Virus record (IMG/VR): IMGVR_UViG_3300045988_128501
Reading direction: 5' to 3' (one strand)
Source of the DNA: a virus
DNA: 41,541 nt
Part shown: piece by piece, positions 24,137 to 39,850 of the stretch
Numbering within the stretch: the stretch's first letter is position 1
How the letters are laid out: the number at the start of each line of letters is the position of its first letter
Program-made: the position numbers and the translations under genes
Notes under the pieces: generated by a model
The model's database searches: none
Seen by the model: only the letters and a program-made list of their open reading frames with translations
Told to the model about the DNA's origin: nothing

Positions 24137-25860
24137 AGTTTGATCGCCCCCACTGGCGGCATTTCCACCGGCATCCCGTCCCCCAACGCTGGCTCAACAA
24201 CCATGCTGGCCACTAACGCCATAAACGGGTCTGTCTTTCGACTTCTTGCTTCAATTTTGGCGTAAATGAAATTTCCTGTATCCACGCCAAGCTTTCGGCT
24301 GCTTGCCACCCGCTTTGTGTTGTTTACCGCCCACCGAAGGCACGGGTTGTCCCCCCAGTGGAACAGACCACGGTCAAAGCACTCTTGAATGACTGGTTCC
24401 ACCTGCATGATGTCAGACGGACGAATCATCTTGACCCGGGTCTTGTCCGCTGCGTCGAAGCCGATCTTCCGCAGACTCTCCGAAACCAACGTCCACCTGT
24501 AGTGGTCCATAGCAAGCATCTTCAAGTTATATTTCTCCGCCGCCTTGGCGATGTATTGGGCCAGCAAATCCGGATGAATGGACACATCGTCTACCGCCGT
24601 AACAAACCCGCGTTCAGCCCATTCCCTCCACGGAGCCTTCACACGGCTCAGCATTCTGGACTGTAAACACATCCAGGCGTGGTTGATGTCGTATCGCTCT
24701 GCCCCTCTGCGAAAGTGCAGATTCACCGCCGCCCAGTCGGACAGCTCGGCATAGTCTATCCCGACGGTGCAGGACCATCCCTGAAGATCTGGGACCGTTT
24801 GGTTTGTGGCCTTGACCTTCTCATAATCGGTCACCGCAATCTCCTTAAACCCCGCTCGGATCCCCATTCGCTTGGTAATGAAGTCTCCGTTCTGCTCCGG
24901 GTGGTCTTTCCAATCCCGGTACTCGTCCGCGATCTCTTGCTGGAGGTGCGGCATGTAGTACAACGACGGATTTGCCATGAACCAGTTTTCTGGATCGTGA
25001 ACTTGGTCCTTAGACTCCAGGCAGCAGATGAAGGGAAGAAACCCATTGTCCTCCTCTCCTTCAAACAGGATCCTTCGTCCTCTGGCCAGATAATCGTCCA
25101 GCGGTCCATCCGAAACTTCCCCGTTGGAGGTGAAGATTCCGACGCGCGGCTGGGCCACCTTCCCTTGGCCGGTGATAAACACCTTGATATTGTCGTAGTT
25201 CTCGAAGGCGTGGACCTCATTGAACACAACTTTGCCAGAGCGCATACCATCCCGGCCTTTCGGATTATTGGTCCGTCCCTTCATAACCCCTTTGTTCTTT
25301 CGACCTTGGATCAGTTCCTTGGTATGGTAGTAGTGCTTTCTCAGCTTGCTTTCCCACTTCGGCGTCTCCAAAACCTCTGCCAGATCCTTGACGGGCGTGA
25401 CGGCCTGTTCCTCGTTGTTGGCGCAGATGTCAACATTGTAGTGGGCGACCGGATTGTACGGAGAGATGGAACACGCGGAATCGAACGCAATGAATCCGTC
25501 CTTCCCTGCGCCACGGCCCACCATACAGAGAACCGTTTTCCATCGCGGCGTCCCATCCGCTTTGTAGGTGCAGTCCCAAAGCGTGAGAAGGAACTCCTCC
25601 CAGGGGAAGAGCCGGTCATAGGGGAAGTACTTGACCAGCCCAAGGTAACGCCCTAGCTGCTCACGATCCACATAAACGTCCTCCTGAGCAAACACACGCC
25701 GAACATAAGCCGCCAACGCATGCTGCTCCCGGCAGGCCCGCGGGCAATCCTGCTCCACACTCTCTAAATACCCAAGGACCTCTTTGGGGATCTCACAGGG
25801 CATCGTCATCACCACCGGATGGTTTTGCGTTGAGCGCCTGATCCTGGAATCCGAGGGCAC
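24133..25860 (-). CDS. terL: Terminase large subunit (start may be ATG at 25809 or 25803 rather than GTG at 25860)
   Basis: Walker A-like MVGRGAGKD. Size and position after TerS. Confidence 0.85.
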   Translation of the reverse strand: MPSDSRIRRSTQNHPVVMTMPCEIPKEVLGYLESVEQDCPRACREQHALAAYVRRVFAQEDVYVDREQLGRYLGLVKYFPYDRLFPWEEFLLTLWDCTYKADGTPRWKTVLCMVGRGAGKDGFIAFDSACSISPYNPVAHYNVDICANNEEQAVTPVKDLAEVLETPKWESKLRKHYYHTKELIQGRKNKGVMKGRTNNPKGRDGMRSGKVVFNEVHAFENYDNIKVFITGQGKVAQPRVGIFTSNGEVSDGPLDDYLARGRRILFEGEEDNGFLPFICCLESKDQVHDPENWFMANPSLYYMPHLQQEIADEYRDWKDHPEQNGDFITKRMGIRAGFKEIAVTDYEKVKATNQTVPDLQGWSCTVGIDYAELSDWAAVNLHFRRGAERYDINHAWMCLQSRMLSRVKAPWREWAERGFVTAVDDVSIHPDLLAQYIAKAAEKYNLKMLAMDHYRWTLVSESLRKIGFDAADKTRVKMIRPSDIMQVEPVIQECFDRGLFHWGDNPCLRWAVNNTKRVASSRKLGVDTGNFIYAKIEARSRKTDPFMALVASMVVEPALGDGMPVEMPPVGAIKL

Positions 25861-26155
25861 GCCAGATGTTTAACATCTGGGAAGAGATTCGAGCGATCTT
25901 CTCCACGCTCTTATTGTCTGTGGTTCCCTTCTGGTTGGCGCCGTTCTGGTACTCCACATACACCCCGCGTTCCGCGATGTCTTCAGCCAGCATTTTTTCC
26001 AGACACCACAGACTCATGTACTCGTTGACCTTATCCACATAAGGCCGGCTCACCAGCCCGCGAGCTTGAAGATCCTCCAGCAGATCCTCGCGAAGCTGCT
26101 TGTAGTCCGAAGTCTTTTCGTAAACCGCGCACAGACCGGATGCTTTTTTCGGCAT
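25793..26155 (-). CDS. terS: Terminase small subunit (P27 family)
   Basis: Family-like sequence (VDKVNEYMSLWCL...YQNGANQKGTTDNKS). Position between HNH and TerL. Confidence 0.8.
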   Translation of the reverse strand: MPKKASGLCAVYEKTSDYKQLREDLLEDLQARGLVSRPYVDKVNEYMSLWCLEKMLAEDIAERGVYVEYQNGANQKGTTDNKSVEKIARISSQMLNIWRALGFQDQALNAKPSGGDDDAL

Positions 26156-26250
26156 GTTATCACCTCACCTATACGCATAGTATAAAATATACAGAAAGGA
26201 CTGCACCCTTGACGACCGGCCATTTTCAACCTCGACTCGTTTTTTTGAGA

Positions 26251-26270: not shown

Positions 26271-26612
26271 TCAATCCCATCGCTCCTCCGTCAGCCACAC
26301 TTTTCGCGAAGGAAATTTTTTCTGCGATTCAGGATGCAAAGCCTCATGGCATTTTTTACAAACGCATTCGAGGTTCCTCTTTCCATTCTCATCGAACACA
26401 CTCAACGCAAGGTCAGGCCTGTCCTTGAGATGGTTTATATGGTGTACGATATACCCTTTAGTATATCTACCTTTCTTCCTGCACTCTTGACATTCGAAAT
26501 GATCGAGCTTGAGCACTTCAGCTTTCAACCTCCTCCACTCCGGCCAGGAGTAGAAGGCATCCGCGTTGTCTGCAGCAACCATCCCGGAGAGTTCTTGTAG
26601 GGTGTGAGGCAT
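26271..26612 (-). CDS. HNH endonuclease (terminase-associated type)
   Basis: CQECRKKG...VHHINHL...CKKCHEALH. Adjacent to terS/terL, as in HK97-like cos phages. Confidence 0.85.
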   Translation of the reverse strand: MPHTLQELSGMVAADNADAFYSWPEWRRLKAEVLKLDHFECQECRKKGRYTKGYIVHHINHLKDRPDLALSVFDENGKRNLECVCKKCHEALHPESQKKFPSRKVWLTEERWD

Positions 26613-26935: not shown

Positions 26936-27238
26936 TCAACCGTTAAAATTGTATGTACGACCATCAATTATTACGTCATCTACGCCGAAGCCATCCGGAT
27001 ACGCATAAAACGGCATGCCCTCTTCATAATAATAAACATTTCCGTTTATATGCAAAACTCCCGCCACATTTATTTTCTCAACGTAATCTCTCCACGTCAT
27101 TCCGATAACAAATGGAATATCATATTTATTAAATGCATTACTAAAATATAACGATAGCGGGCTGCCATTGGCTTCTAGTCTAAAAGTTCCAAACTTAATA
27201 CTTCCTCCGTCCCCATACACAACCGGATTAACAATCAT
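26936..27238 (-). CDS. Small protein of the MIxNPxVV family (100 aa)
   Basis: GGAGGTGacagctATG RBS. Starts MIVNPVVYGDGGS. AT-richer than its surroundings. Confidence 0.7.
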   Translation of the reverse strand: MIVNPVVYGDGGSIKFGTFRLEANGSPLSLYFSNAFNKYDIPFVIGMTWRDYVEKINVAGVLHINGNVYYYEEGMPFYAYPDGFGVDDVIIDGRTYNFNG

Positions 27239-27286
27239 AGCTGTCACCTCCGGCTCGGGCAATCTGACGAAGGGTTAGGTTATTTG

Positions 27287-27295
27287 CCCCCCCCC
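27287..27295. repeat. Homopolymer tract (G9 on minus strand) in the leader of the small-gene pair
   Basis: ccagcGGGGGGGGGcaaat lies between the putative promoter and the RBS. Confidence 0.9.
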
Positions 27296-27311
27296 GCTGG
27301 AAATAACTGGA

Positions 27312-27341
27312 ATTGTACATAGTGCACACCCTCCAAGTAAA
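27312..27341 (-). promoter_or_regulatory. Putative promoter TTTACT-18-TACAAT for the small-gene pair
   Basis: On the minus strand TTTACTtggagggtgtgcactatgTACAAT lies directly after the RNA-locus terminator. Confidence 0.45.
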
Positions 27342-27343
27342 TT

Positions 27344-27384
27344 ACAAGAAAAGAGCGGCTGAAACTCCATTAAACTCCCGCTCT
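27344..27384 (-). terminator. Intrinsic terminator ending the RNA locus
   Basis: On the minus strand AGAGCGG-19nt-CCGCTCT is followed by TTTTCTTGT. Confidence 0.6.
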
Positions 27385-27478
27385 GTCGCTCTCCTAAGCC
27401 ACAGCGGAGGCGAAGTTGTTTTGCAGGCCGTTGGATGGTGGCTGCGATCATCCTGATAGCAATCCTGCTCTGAAGGTC

Positions 27479-27554
27479 TGGTGGTTCCCCCTGGCCTCGA
27501 ACCAGGATATGCCCGGTTATGAGCCGGGATCTCTGCCTCTTGAGATAAGGAACC
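27479..27554 (-). tRNA. tRNA-Met (anticodon CAT; could equally be a lysidine-type tRNA-Ile2), CCA encoded
   Basis: Manual fold of GGTTCCT-TA-TCTC-AAGAGGCA-GAGA-T-CCCGG-CTCATAA-CCGGG-CATAT-CCTGG-TTCGAGG-CCAGG-GGGAACC-A-CCA. 76 nt with all four arms canonical. Confidence 0.88.
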
Positions 27555-27619
27555 GTATAGGCGGATTCTGTCTCTACAGGCCCCGCCGTGCCCAGCCGTT
27601 TTCTCACGCGTCGGCACGC

Positions 27620-27684
27620 TACCCCCGTCTGGACTCGAACCAGAATCCTGCAAAAAGCGCTTTTACCGTCAAAGCTACAGGGGC
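27620..27684 (-). ncRNA. tRNA-like element lacking an anticodon arm (65 nt)
   Basis: Acceptor GCCCCTG/CGGGGGT, D arm GCTT-TGACGGTAA-AAGC, T arm TCTGG-TTCGAGT-CCAGA. Only 14 nt (GCTTTTTGCAGGAT) sit where the anticodon arm and variable loop belong. No CCA. Confidence 0.45.
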
Positions 27685-27689
27685 AAATG

Positions 27690-28168
27690 GGGAGAACCCG
27701 TATGGCAACCGGGTCCACCCGCTCTCCGTCTTTCCGGAGCGTCATGCAAGAAAAATCCGCCATAAATTTTCCACGCACTGCCGAACGTCAGGCGCGACCT
27801 GACACCCTCGGATAGTGAGGGCCTTTCTGGGGTTCGGCATGTATGGCCCTAAATCCTCGGGCCATGTCGCGGGTTTTGTCCGGCTTTGCCCGCGAGCCGG
27901 AAGCTCCAATGTGGAGTTGGCCGTCCGTACCTGAGTTGCACAGGCATTCGCACTGGCCGGACGATGTGGGCGGCGGCATGGTTGGGGGAATCAGAAAAGA
28001 GGTCTATAAAAAACCCGAGAAAGAAGGAGCGATTCTGCCGCCGCCCGTAAAGGAGGACCCGATACTACCGCTTCGGAGTCGAGCGGGGAAAGACGGTACA
28101 GACGCAATTTACATATAAGAGAAAAATGAATAAATTCATTTTTCTCTATATGTAAATTGCTATTCTGT
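27690..28168 (-). ncRNA. Candidate large structured non-coding RNA (about 480 nt, GC-rich, at least 12 helices)
   Basis: No credible ORF or RBS. Lies between a consensus promoter and the tRNAs. Includes an 11-bp long-range helix (28036-28046 with 27968-27978), a three-way junction (27781-27838) and interleaved helices (27867-27900). G-U pairs form only on the minus-strand reading. Confidence 0.5.
28104..28160. repeat. Long AT-rich inverted repeat (27-bp stem, one bulge, 2-nt loop)
   Basis: gcaatttacatataagagaaaaatgaat-aa-attcatttttctctatatgtaaattgc. Confidence 0.9.
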
Positions 28169-28174
28169 AATTAA

Positions 28175-28204
28175 ATTGTACTACTTGTCAAGAGCAAAAG
28201 TCAA
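28175..28204 (-). promoter_or_regulatory. SigmaA-type promoter TTGACT-18-TACAAT driving the RNA locus
   Basis: On the minus strand TTGACTtttgctcttgacaagtagTACAAT lies downstream of the HNH_3 gene stop. Confidence 0.55.
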
Positions 28205-28239
28205 CCGTTTTGATGAAATGGACATCTGTAAGGTACTCA

Positions 28240-28743
28240 CTACTCGTCAAATTCAAACAAAATCCCTTGTATGATTCTACCATTTATTATCCGTTTTCTG
28301 AGGCCAGACAATGTTATGTGGTTTTGTTCTGCTGCTTGTTTTATGGATGAGTAATATACGATGTCTCCACCTACAGAAATTCGCTTTACTGGCCTTCTCC
28401 CTCCATGATTTTGTCTGACTACTCTTGACTTTTTGGCGTATTCCAGGTTTGACAATCGAACATTCCGCCAATCCCCGTCTTTATGGTGCACTACGTATCC
28501 ATCTAACTTACCGCGCATCCAAACGTCCCTCATCAAGGATCTAACTGTAACCTTTTTCCTTGACTCTCTTCTGCCTAATCCGACAGTTAAACTTCCCGCT
28601 TTATGACTTTCTGATGGCGTTAACATTCTCGGCTTTTTGGCGGGAATTGTCCCGATTGGCATCCAGCTGCGGACACGACCTTCTGTAGATATTTCGTACA
28701 ATCCATCAAACCCCGGAATGCGTCTCCATCGTTCCGCTGGCAC
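28240..28743 (-). CDS. HNH_3-family homing endonuclease with NUMOD4 motif
   Basis: WRRIPGFDGLYEISTEGRVRS (NUMOD4), VHHKDGDWRNVRLSNLE (HNH_3), and a C-terminal HTH-like segment. AT-richer than its flanks. Confidence 0.8.
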   Translation of the reverse strand: MPAERWRRIPGFDGLYEISTEGRVRSWMPIGTIPAKKPRMLTPSESHKAGSLTVGLGRRESRKKVTVRSLMRDVWMRGKLDGYVVHHKDGDWRNVRLSNLEYAKKSRVVRQNHGGRRPVKRISVGGDIVYYSSIKQAAEQNHITLSGLRKRIINGRIIQGILFEFDE

Positions 28744-29209
28744 CGTTACTCATCTCCGTTTCTATGTATGCAAGACCGGCAGCGTAGGCTGCCCACATGT
28801 CGGCTCGAAAGCCGAAAAAGAAATCCGGGTGCTTCTTGCTTCCCTTTCCGTTGGTGCGGTCGTGGGTGGCGAACCGGTCGATCAGGGCCCGGCGTATGCT
28901 GGCGTCGTTACCACGAGGGCTGTTGCAGATGTGAAGGACAACTTCCTTCCGGTAGATGTACCCCACAGGGGCGGTGGCAGCTTGGGTATACCGGCCCACC
29001 CACTCGCAGGTCTCCAGTACCTCCCGCCCCACGGGCATCCCGTAGCTTGCCACACGCTCAATGACCAGGAAATCGTAGCGTTCCACCTGGACCATGAGCA
29101 GGCACGTAGCGTTGAGCTCCTTCCCCACTCGGATGGGGCGGAGGGTTTCACTATCCAGGACACAGAAGCCGGACTGGATGTCTCCGGGGTCAAGGGCTAG
29201 TATCTTCAC
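28706..29209 (-). CDS. RuvC-like Holliday junction resolvase
   Basis: MKILALDPG and LVIERV acidic catalytic motifs. Confidence 0.75.
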   Translation of the reverse strand: MKILALDPGDIQSGFCVLDSETLRPIRVGKELNATCLLMVQVERYDFLVIERVASYGMPVGREVLETCEWVGRYTQAATAPVGYIYRKEVVLHICNSPRGNDASIRRALIDRFATHDRTNGKGSKKHPDFFFGFRADMWAAYAAGLAYIETEMSNGASGTMETHSGV

Positions 29210-39226: not shown

Positions 39227-39850
39227 ATGGAGAAGGGTGAAAGGATCAGATCAAGGCGAGAAGCATTGGGGATGACACAAACCGAGCTTGCGGATGCATT
39301 ATCCACGACAAAACAAAACATCTACAAATATGAAAACGGGATAATCTCAAATATTCCTTCCGACAAGATTGAAGCAATGGCTGAAATCCTAAAGACAACA
39401 CCAGCTTATCTTATGGGGTGGGAGGAAGAAACGGTACTACCACCCAATATAGAACCACTTGGATCCATGCAAAAAATCCCCCTTGTTGGTCAGATTGCCT
39501 GCGGAACCCCCATCTTAGCCGAACAAAATATAGAGGATTACGTTGACCTTCCGGGCCATATCAGGGCGGATTTCGCGTTGACCTGTAAAGGCGAGAGCAT
39601 GATTGGTGCAGGAATCCGCTCGGGAGATATTGTCTACATCCGAAAACAGGAGGAGGTGGAAAATGGACAGATCGCCGCTGTCATGGTAGGAGGTGACGAG
39701 GCAACACTAAAACGAGTCTATACCAAACCAGGGGTTGTCCAGCTGGTGGCGGAAAATCCAAATATAGCCCCAGCGGTTTTTATAGGCAAAGAGGCTGAAC
39801 AAATTCATATCATTGGACTGGCCGTAGCGTATACACATGTACTAGATTGA
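39227..39850 (+). CDS. CI/LexA-like repressor (XRE HTH + S24 autopeptidase domain)
   Basis: MTQTELADALSTTKQNIYKYENG, then GESMIGAGI (Ser) and ATLKRV (Lys). Confidence 0.88.
   Translation: MEKGERIRSRREALGMTQTELADALSTTKQNIYKYENGIISNIPSDKIEAMAEILKTTPAYLMGWEEETVLPPNIEPLGSMQKIPLVGQIACGTPILAEQNIEDYVDLPGHIRADFALTCKGESMIGAGIRSGDIVYIRKQEEVENGQIAAVMVGGDEATLKRVYTKPGVVQLVAENPNIAPAVFIGKEAEQIHIIGLAVAYTHVLD

Follow-up and report, generated by a model that had tools for sequence, protein, structure and literature searches.

A modular minus-strand RNA locus with one tRNA and structurally conserved tRNA mimics in a temperate phage of the human gut

What does a phage genome encode in a long stretch without a credible open reading frame (ORF)? 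The question is raised by IMG/VR record IMGVR_UViG_3300045988_128501, whose 41,541 nucleotides (the window, numbered from its first letter) are a complete temperate siphovirus genome. The stretch in question lies at positions 27,344 to 28,204. An initial annotation, made from the sequence alone, read it as a self-contained locus in which a promoter and an AT-rich hairpin precede one large structured RNA, a tRNA-like element, a canonical tRNA-Met and an intrinsic terminator, and suggested membership of the GOLLD or ROOL RNA classes. We find the locus to be non-coding, transcribed in the minus-strand sense and modular, with one tRNA and structurally conserved tRNA mimics. On balance we favor the view that it is an accessory, mobile and polycistronic tRNA-plus-tRNA-mimic cassette, the precursor of which is predicted to be cut by RNase P and RNase Z. 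The features described in the initial annotation were all found at their places on the minus strand, the exception being a weak terminator. From 5′ to 3′ on that strand the cassette of the window reads as follows.

28175-28204, minus: sigma-70-type promoter TTGACT-18-TACAAT, 10/12 consensus matches
28104-28160, minus: AT-rich near-perfect palindrome or hairpin of 57 nt, -29.5 kcal/mol, z = -12.7
28047-28060, minus: CU-rich, anti-Shine-Dalgarno-like motif GGGUCCUCCUUUAC, found in all three 5′ contexts
27968-28046, minus: long hairpin M2, 11-bp and 5-bp basal helices with a variable CU-rich top, z = -4.1
27918-27963, minus: minihelix M3, 7-bp acceptor-like and 5-bp T-arm-like stems, 7-nt loop, ending in G-CCA
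27904-27916, minus: short hairpin M4, CUCCA-CAU-UGGAG, which is CCCC-GNRA-GGGG in relatives
27868-27900, minus: putative H-type pseudoknot M6, read from sequence, CCGGC-U-CGCGGG-CAAA-GCCGG-ACAAAA-CCCGCG
27843-27865, minus: hairpin M7, AUGGCCC-GAGGAUUUA-GGGCCAU, part of the universal core
27779-27839, minus: three-way junction M8, 8-bp closing stem TGCCGAAC/GTTCGGCA and two hairpins, z = -4.5
27690-27776, minus: three-hairpin unit M9, z = -2.6
27620-27684, minus: tRNA-like RNA M10 with acceptor, D and T arms, its anticodon arm a 2-bp stub GC-UUUUU-GC
27555-27619, minus: spacer M11, two hairpins, z = -3.3
27479-27554, minus: tRNA with CAU anticodon and encoded CCA, ARAGORN tRNA-Met(cat), Rfam 46.8 bits
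27385-27478, minus: tail M13 (94 nt), present in some relatives only
27344-27384, minus: terminator-like hairpin followed by UUUUCUU, 7-bp stem and 19-nt loop

A protein-coding reading of this stretch is effectively excluded. No ORF inside the region has a Pfam match, and in eight relatives the homologous 630-1000 nt were left uncalled by the gene callers of the source collections, which bears out the earlier statement that a credible ORF is lacking. The homologues differ by 1-nt indels, by gain or loss of whole modules and by compensatory changes. The GC-rich ORFs that a simple ORF-gap finder lays over the RNA region are spurious.

In total, 57 cassette loci were collected by five routes. These were IMG/VR loci anchored on TerL plus the neighboring resolvase, a search of IMG/VR with the hairpin ATGGCCCGAGRATTTAGGGCCAT (19 loci), a search of metagenomes with the pseudoknot pattern (29 loci, all from human gut), a search of GTDB species genomes with the same core pattern (0 loci), and loci anchored on exact TerL proteins. 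Across these loci the ~420 nt that had been taken for a single large RNA split into modules that are present or absent independently of each other. There are three 5′ contexts, each of which occurs with several 3′ arrays, and the arrays number at least six. The type 1 context, which is that of the window, consists of the present promoter and AT palindrome; a 90-nt insert is added in some of these loci and not in others. Type 2 has another promoter and a ~150-nt leader, and is without M2, M3 and M4. Type 3 has a different 5′ end, an additional three-way junction bearing a T-loop, and a long hairpin of other sequence. On the 3′ side, the tRNA follows directly after M7 in one array and is preceded by M8 and the M11 spacer in another; further arrays carry M8 and M9, or M8, M9, M10 and M11, or a second kind of anticodon-armless tRNA-like element (locus L122), or M8 with a variant M9 and a tRNA-Ser(UGA) (loci L090, L094 and L110). 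The long helix, the minihelix, the three-way junction, M9 and M10 are each missing in some natural variants. The only universal part, ~75 nt long, comprises the CCUCCUU stretch, the putative pseudoknot M6 and hairpin M7, followed by a tRNA or a tRNA-like element. An array of self-contained units fits this module pattern, which is hard to reconcile with one large folded RNA.

The GC-rich helices named earlier, including CTCCA/TGGAG, ATGGCCC/GGGCCAT, CTCCG-GAAAGA-CGGAG and GGACCCG/CGGGTTC, are all present on the minus strand, and modules folded singly reproduce them with z values of -1.6 to -4.5. Without the AT hairpin, the 416-nt GC-rich part compared with shuffles gives z = -3.7 for the minus-strand sequence and -2.6 for its complement. 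Reading the RNA from the minus strand had been proposed on the basis of a single G-U pair, and the homologues extend the argument: every one-sided helix change leaves a G·U pair when read from the minus strand, where the plus strand would have an A·C mismatch. When the helices were checked in the collected homologues, several were backed by compensatory or wobble changes (M2, M3, M8, M9 and M10). In M2, whose helices are GGGCGGCGGCA/TGCCGCCGCCC and GAATC/GATTC, A-U to G·U and G-C to G·U changes in the 11-bp and 5-bp stems pair on the minus strand only, and the hairpin of other sequence that takes the M2 position in type-3 loci shows an A-U to G-C double change. The stem of M4 is swapped in relatives for a different complementary sequence. 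The two-hairpin three-way junction that had been claimed is M8, and relatives show in it a C-G to A-U compensatory change and a C-G to U·G wobble, with the module itself optional among loci. The wobble changes in spacer M11, where 13 of 65 columns vary, likewise fit the minus strand.

Minihelix M3, built from CGTCCG/CGGACG enclosing CCTG/CAGG, has canonical T-loops in relatives (UUCGAUU or UUCAAUU). Over 13 variants 98.1% of its cells are paired and five of its 12 pairs show compensatory double changes; its covariation score is 0.375, compared with 0.16 for column shuffles and at most 0.09 for slid controls, in which no pair shows a double change. The tRNA-like element of the initial annotation is M10, which matches the Rfam tRNA model with 39.2 bits and has 8 nt in place of the 17-nt anticodon arm. 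It fails as a complete cloverleaf, with no tRNA call from ARAGORN at this position. The variant in L122 is likewise armless, with the stub CC-UUCG-GG, and acceptor pairs 1:72, 5:68 and 6:67 together with the T stem are compensated between the window and L122 variants. In M9, three of the seven pairs of the stem GGACCCG/CGGGUUC are compensatory and both loops are invariant. These loops, UUAUGGCGG (27743-27776, M9a) and GUUGCCAUA (27690-27720, M9c), are complementary over 6-8 nt (UAUGGC at 27756-27761 with GCCAUA at 27701-27706) and are both kept in L090-type loci, where the stems are different. A loop-loop kissing interaction is inferred from sequence. The UGGC of the M9 loop also complements the GCCA end of the minihelix (27918-27921).

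Variability is very uneven along the array. Among the 14 loci with the full 3′ array, M10 is the least variable module:

M10: 1/65 variable columns, pi 0.007
M9a: 4/62 variable columns, pi 0.009
Spacer M11: 13/65 variable columns, pi 0.072
tRNA: 22/73 variable columns, pi 0.084

A recent sweep with M10 would have carried along M11 and the tRNA 65 nt away as well. This contrast is thus evidence of constraint on M10 and M9a at the level of sequence.

Truncated acceptor/T-arm elements of the M3 and M10 type were confined to the cassette, both in a scan of the fetched DNA and in IMG/VR pattern scans for M10 and M3, and a scan of GTDB species genomes with the M10 pattern returned no anticodon-armless element of the cassette kind. 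The other scan matches fell on a tRNA gene carrying a 66-nt anticodon-loop insert that holds a T-arm-like hairpin (L126-L134; in L127 at 1356-1487); it is near-identical in Fibrobacter, Bacteroidales and Kiritimatiellia metagenome-assembled genomes and in two viral contigs. Three other identities for cassette elements were considered and set aside. An attP site, that is, a 3′ tRNA fragment, does not suit the minihelix, the integrase being 27 kb distant and the 5′ acceptor strand being present and covarying. A hammerhead ribozyme does not suit the three-way junction, whose junction lengths of 9/0-1/1 are unfit and which has no model match, and a T-box assignment for GGGUGGACC has no model match and would place the motif inside a stem.

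The real tRNA of the cassette was called a canonical tRNA-Met. That it is a tRNA with a CAU anticodon is upheld by ARAGORN and by its Rfam score (46.8 bits, gathering score 29), whereas its methionine identity is doubtful. In four relatives (L078, L080, L106 and L116), the same acceptor, D and T arms carry a different anticodon arm with UAU (Ile), and on this ground the CAU tRNA would be a lysidine-type tRNA-Ile2; the comparison suggests that it reads AUA and is not a tRNA-Met. Position 1-72 is a paired G1-C72, which we take to rule out a bacterial initiator tRNA. AUA accounts for 13% of Ile codons in the phage as a whole, with a higher share in genes near the cassette. The tRNA is represented by 31 variants in 55 copies, which differ mainly in the D-loop, anticodon arm and variable loop; the T arm is invariant. 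In L090, L094 and L110, the tRNA-Ser(UGA), with its long variable arm, replaces both the CAU tRNA and M10, and the tRNA slot thus accepts different tRNAs.

In the universal core, CCTCCTT is present in 49/49 loci examined, and the type-3 form of the CU-rich motif, CUACCUCCUUUC, is presumably close to the 16S 3′ end. The pseudoknot M6 was not among the features listed in the initial annotation; its family pattern is CCGGC-N-CGCGGG-NAAA-GCCGG-N5-7-CCCGCG. In 16 loci found through their proteins, and hence free of bias toward this pattern, 9/9 variable positions of M6 and M7 fall outside the 34 stem nucleotides (p ~1.6e-4, a hypergeometric estimate). Hairpin M7 always stands 3-4 nt ahead of the next acceptor-like stem.

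The outer limits of the locus are less uniform. The promoter that had been claimed is present and unchanged in all type-1 relatives, and a second one, TTGACA-18-CAGAAT at 28191-28162 (10/12), overlaps it. The opening 27-bp AT-rich hairpin is also where it was placed, directly past the transcription start; it is found in type-1 loci only, is missing in types 2 and 3, and could be a 5′ stabilizer or an operator. Tail M13 has no stable fold (z = +0.8) and is conserved wherever it occurs. The hairpin at 27344-27384 had been described as an intrinsic terminator, a description that did not hold up well: it is weak (-10.4 kcal/mol, z = -0.8), was not reported by the terminator scan, and is conserved only where the tail module occurs, being missing in many relatives. 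In many relatives the tRNA also abuts the ribosome-binding site of the next gene, and together with the weak terminator this makes the description of the locus as self-contained doubtful.

The cassette is accessory and mobile. It is present in every protein-anchored locus with TerL identity of at least 97% whose stored DNA reaches the site, and neither a cassette nor a tRNA was found in ~20 relatives of 48-82% TerL identity over 4-6 kb of upstream flank. It also occurs in phages with unrelated TerL; the type-3 cassette lies between TerS and a TerL without detectable similarity to that of the window. Directly upstream of the cassette stands a homing endonuclease gene, and type-2 relatives have a different NUMOD4 gene at the same place.

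28240-28743, minus: free-standing NUMOD4/HNH_3 homing endonuclease, Pfam NUMOD4 8e-9 and HNH_3 4e-8, PHROG HNH endonuclease

Phage tRNA clusters that include accessory stable RNAs and a homing endonuclease are already known, and the locus is of this kind. What distinguishes the present one is the selected minimal tRNA mimics. The closest analogue is the tRNA cluster of phage T4 (PMC2330249; PMC13096335). The T4 cluster is transcribed as one ~1.75-kb precursor of eight tRNAs plus the species I and II RNAs, and it carries segB, which encodes an enzyme that cleaves T-arm-encoding DNA and drives the region's inheritance (PMC2330249). Homologues of SegB are enriched beside phage tRNAs and amplify anti-defence tRNA loci (PMC13096335). 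As in T4, tRNA and extra structured RNAs are co-oriented behind one promoter, as seen here in the promoter, the module map and the NUMOD4/HNH_3 gene, and a free-standing homing endonuclease is attached to an accessory cluster whose content varies among related phages. However, the endonuclease here is of the NUMOD4/HNH and not the GIY-YIG type, there is only one real tRNA, and the extra RNAs are explicit truncated tRNA shapes. Moreover, the phage is temperate, probably has a Gram-positive-type gut host and shows no nucleotide similarity to GenBank phages beyond the tRNA: when the 861 nt were compared by blastn (word size 11) with 50,697 GenBank phage records, the sole match was the tRNA-Met of Citrobacter phage Tr1. 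The same search gave no homology to the T4 species I/II RNAs, the collection being assumed to include T4 and its relatives.

In the reading that we favor, a single promoter would drive a polycistronic precursor of independent small RNA modules. From its 5′ end this precursor would contain a hairpin and a CU-rich single strand, the long hairpin, the CCA-ending minihelix, the pseudoknot-plus-hairpin core, the three-way junction, the three-hairpin unit, the anticodon-armless tRNA-like RNA and the tRNA(CAU), which would decode AUG or, more likely, AUA. Each acceptor-like stem would serve as an RNase P site. Minihelices are known RNase P substrates, and a U is found at position -1 before M3 and M10, and before M8 too if its first U-A pair is left uncounted. 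RNase Z or exonucleases would trim the 3′ ends, and the predicted products are the tRNA and small RNAs corresponding to the 5′ unit (the CU-rich stretch with M7 as its 3′ hairpin), the minihelix, M8-M9 and M10. Since the mimics are unable to decode, their use would lie in acceptor-end or elbow recognition; the tRNA shapes may be processing punctuation, stabilizers, or mimics engaging host factors that recognize the acceptor end or elbow. Shuffling and spread of the modules would be due to the neighboring homing endonuclease together with recombination at hairpins that the loci share.

Non-decoding tRNA-like folds within a longer non-coding transcript are also found in the tRNA-miRNA (TMER) transcripts of murine gammaherpesvirus 68 (MHV68) and in the mascRNA of MALAT1, where RNase P and RNase Z cleavage at the mimic frees the flanking RNAs. 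Those systems are eukaryotic and without homology to the cassette, for which processing is predicted. The extra acceptor, hairpin and T-arm element of type-3 loci gives a weak match to the mascRNA model (24 bits, E = 1). Acceptor/T-arm mimicry without an anticodon, with pseudoknots nearby, recalls the tRNA-like domain of tmRNA and the bacterial Y-RNA-like YrlA as well. Unlike these, the cassette has no Rfam tmRNA or Yrl match, its acceptor strands are contiguous, and neither SmpB nor Ro was found among the 28 ORFs scanned; standard and permuted tmRNA forms were both looked for, with no ARAGORN call, no Rfam match and no tag ORF.

A more specific proposal, which we regard as speculative and rather unlikely, is that the minihelix and the armless tRNA are mimics that act as decoys or inhibitors of host tRNA-binding factors, making the cassette a counter-defence or host-takeover device. 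By analogy, candidate targets would be toxins that modify the acceptor end (CapRel/toxSAS, MenT or TacT types), RNase P, the CCA-adding enzyme or a synthetase. In such a scheme homing endonucleases would spread the mimics between unrelated gut phages, and the invariant M9 loops might capture NCCA 3′ ends much as a T-box does, through UGGC against GCCA. Phage tRNA loci are seen as anti-defence elements, in which tRNAs replace host tRNAs cut by PARIS, retron, Septu and PrrC-type systems.

Several observations weigh against the processed-cassette reading or parts of it. The CCA of the minihelix is CAA in five variants, and in the natural variant L104 half of hairpin M4 is gone. No compensatory change was found among the loci for the M6 pseudoknot, nor is the suggested kissing of the M9 loops backed by one. 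The shared modules are at least ~90% identical among homologues, so that covariation power is low and phylogenetically shallow. The weak terminator makes the transcript limits uncertain. In the PHROG scans of the 28 tested ORFs of the window, RNA ligase, reverse transcriptase, Ro and SmpB gave 0 matches, and thus no phage-encoded protein partner. The decoy idea is drawn from analogy.

Among other explanations, the one that survives best, to which we assign a minor share of probability, holds that the tRNA-like modules are relics: decaying pseudogenes of a former tRNA array that internal deletions have shortened and endonuclease-driven recombination has shuffled, with tRNA(CAU) as the only functional element. 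Each mimic does resemble a tRNA minus one or two arms, natural variants do without individual modules, the minihelix does not always retain its CCA, and the family is narrow, being confined to this cassette in IMG/VR. However, stems are maintained by compensatory changes, and two different 2-bp stubs occur in otherwise compensated M10 variants. Furthermore, M10 and M9a are ~10x less variable than the tRNA 65 nt away, which neither decay nor a single recent sweep explains.

It is less probable again that the region is a cis-acting leader of downstream packaging or late genes, working by antitermination, attenuation or translational control (for example, pairing of CCUCCUU with a GGAGG ribosome-binding site). 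The cassette is always beside the packaging module, in type-3 loci between TerS and TerL; the CU-rich motif shows conservation; and the next gene, in many relatives, has its ribosome-binding site and start within ~15 nt of the tRNA, with no terminator. Against this, processing of the tRNA would cut the leader off the mRNA, most of the leader is optional among loci, and the downstream genes vary by locus. No terminator/antiterminator alternative was found in it, and no T-box or other cis-regulatory Rfam match.

We consider it improbable that the locus is one large ornate RNA of a new GOLLD/ROOL-like class in which the tRNA-like parts are embedded. Dense GC-rich helices (z = -3.7 for the part without the AT hairpin), a prophage setting beside a tRNA as in GOLLD and ROOL, the possible pseudoknot and the loop-loop contact would all suit such an RNA, and the 5′ half of GOLLD is itself variable. 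Yet the Rfam models speak against membership of these families, both of which we take to be present in Rfam 15, as in earlier releases. At gathering thresholds, cmscan found 0 matches in the whole window; with the cut-off relaxed to E = 10, the interval 27000-28600 yielded the two tRNA matches, chance microRNA-like matches on the AT hairpin and nothing else, with no match to GOLLD, ROOL or another large RNA. The same models found nothing further inside the cassette of the longer relatives L078, L084, L085 and L081, and self-cleaving ribozyme, T-box and riboswitch models had no match in the window. In contrast to GOLLD and ROOL, the loci have no large conserved core beyond the ~75 nt common to all, and the remaining modules are individually dispensable. 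The long-range closing helix of the minimum free energy fold, CCGUCUUUCC/GGAAAGACGG, was rejected as a candidate; the modules at its two ends assort independently of each other, and by our estimate a complement of 10 nt is near chance in 800 nt.

A DNA-level element, with the inverted repeats as protein-binding sites (cos/pac, origin or operator), is very improbable: the locus does lie 1.1-2.0 kb from the inferred cos end and has a 57-bp perfect-type palindrome directly past its promoter, but G·U substitutions maintain the pairs of just one strand, and folds of the tRNA and tRNA-like type are specific to RNA. In addition, cos is marked by contig ends at another place (~26203-26213), and only the AT palindrome is still plausible as a DNA site (operator).

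Outside the cassette, type-3 relatives contain known RNA motifs, none of which is in the window. The gut-2 RNA motif was found between cassette and TerL with 47 bits, above gathering, at L085 6752-6799 (plus) and L078 7807-7854 (minus). Type II hammerhead matches were found at L085 4241-4305 and 3614-3676 (minus) and L078 10715-10777 (plus), scoring 47.3 bits (above the gathering score of 37) and 32.3 bits in L085 and 29.4 bits in L078, the latter two below gathering. A literature search on phage anticodon-less tRNA mimics or gut-2 RNA returned nothing relevant. In L085 and L104, CAGGGGGTACCC occurs twice as a direct repeat between TerS and the cassette, ~300-420 nt ahead of the pseudoknot and together with sequence rich in C/G runs, and this repeat region may be a pac or regulatory site.

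The surroundings of the cassette are those of a temperate phage. On the minus strand, the resolvase is followed by HNH, TerS, TerL, portal, ClpP-type protease and capsid genes, and the window also encodes Sak4, a replisome organizer and a dCTP deaminase.

18-1109, plus: integrase (PHROG scans)
39227-39850, plus: CI-like repressor (PHROG scans)
28706-29209: RuvC-like resolvase, on the upstream side of the cassette
26271-26612: HNH gene of HK97 type, adjoining the probable cos end
25793-26155, minus: TerS

The GC content of the cassette is 57-61%, compared with 30-47% in the flanks. An identical TerL is also present on contigs of 612 kb and 826 kb, which indicates that the phage occurs as an integrated prophage as well. 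The nearest TerL of a named phage, from a Clostridium scindens phage, is 41% identical, megablast and blastn against GenBank phages found no relative of the region or of the genome, and the close relatives all come from human-gut samples; a Bacillota (Clostridia-like) bacterium is the probable host. In IMG/VR, ENA and Logan, many independent contigs stop 343-356 nt upstream of TerL, corresponding to window ~26203-26213 between HNH and TerS. This is likely to be the cos end, which would place the RNA locus 1.1-2.0 kb from the right end of the virion DNA. On the 3′ side of the cassette, a short ORF contains a G9 homopolymer (window 27286-27296, minus), and at the same site relatives (L083, L092, L123 and L135-L145) range from G7 to G11. 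Small ORFs 3′ of the cassette, with N-termini MI[NV]NP..., are exchanged between otherwise near-identical phages. The G-run and the swapped ORFs could reflect phase variation, frameshifting or assembly noise.

To our knowledge, the extra stable RNAs of phage tRNA clusters, known since T4 species I and II, are still unexplained. The cassette offers compact, naturally minimized forms of tRNA, namely a CCA-bearing minihelix of 42 nt and a tRNA that lacks the anticodon arm, and these mimics are kept by selection while the adjoining real tRNA diversifies fast. The significance is limited by the narrow family and the shallow sequence divergence. If the mimics are relics, the cassette still documents module shuffling at a homing-endonuclease-linked tRNA hotspot in abundant human-gut phages. 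If they are decoys or processing signals, they would represent a new phage use of tRNA mimicry and would provide simple test substrates.

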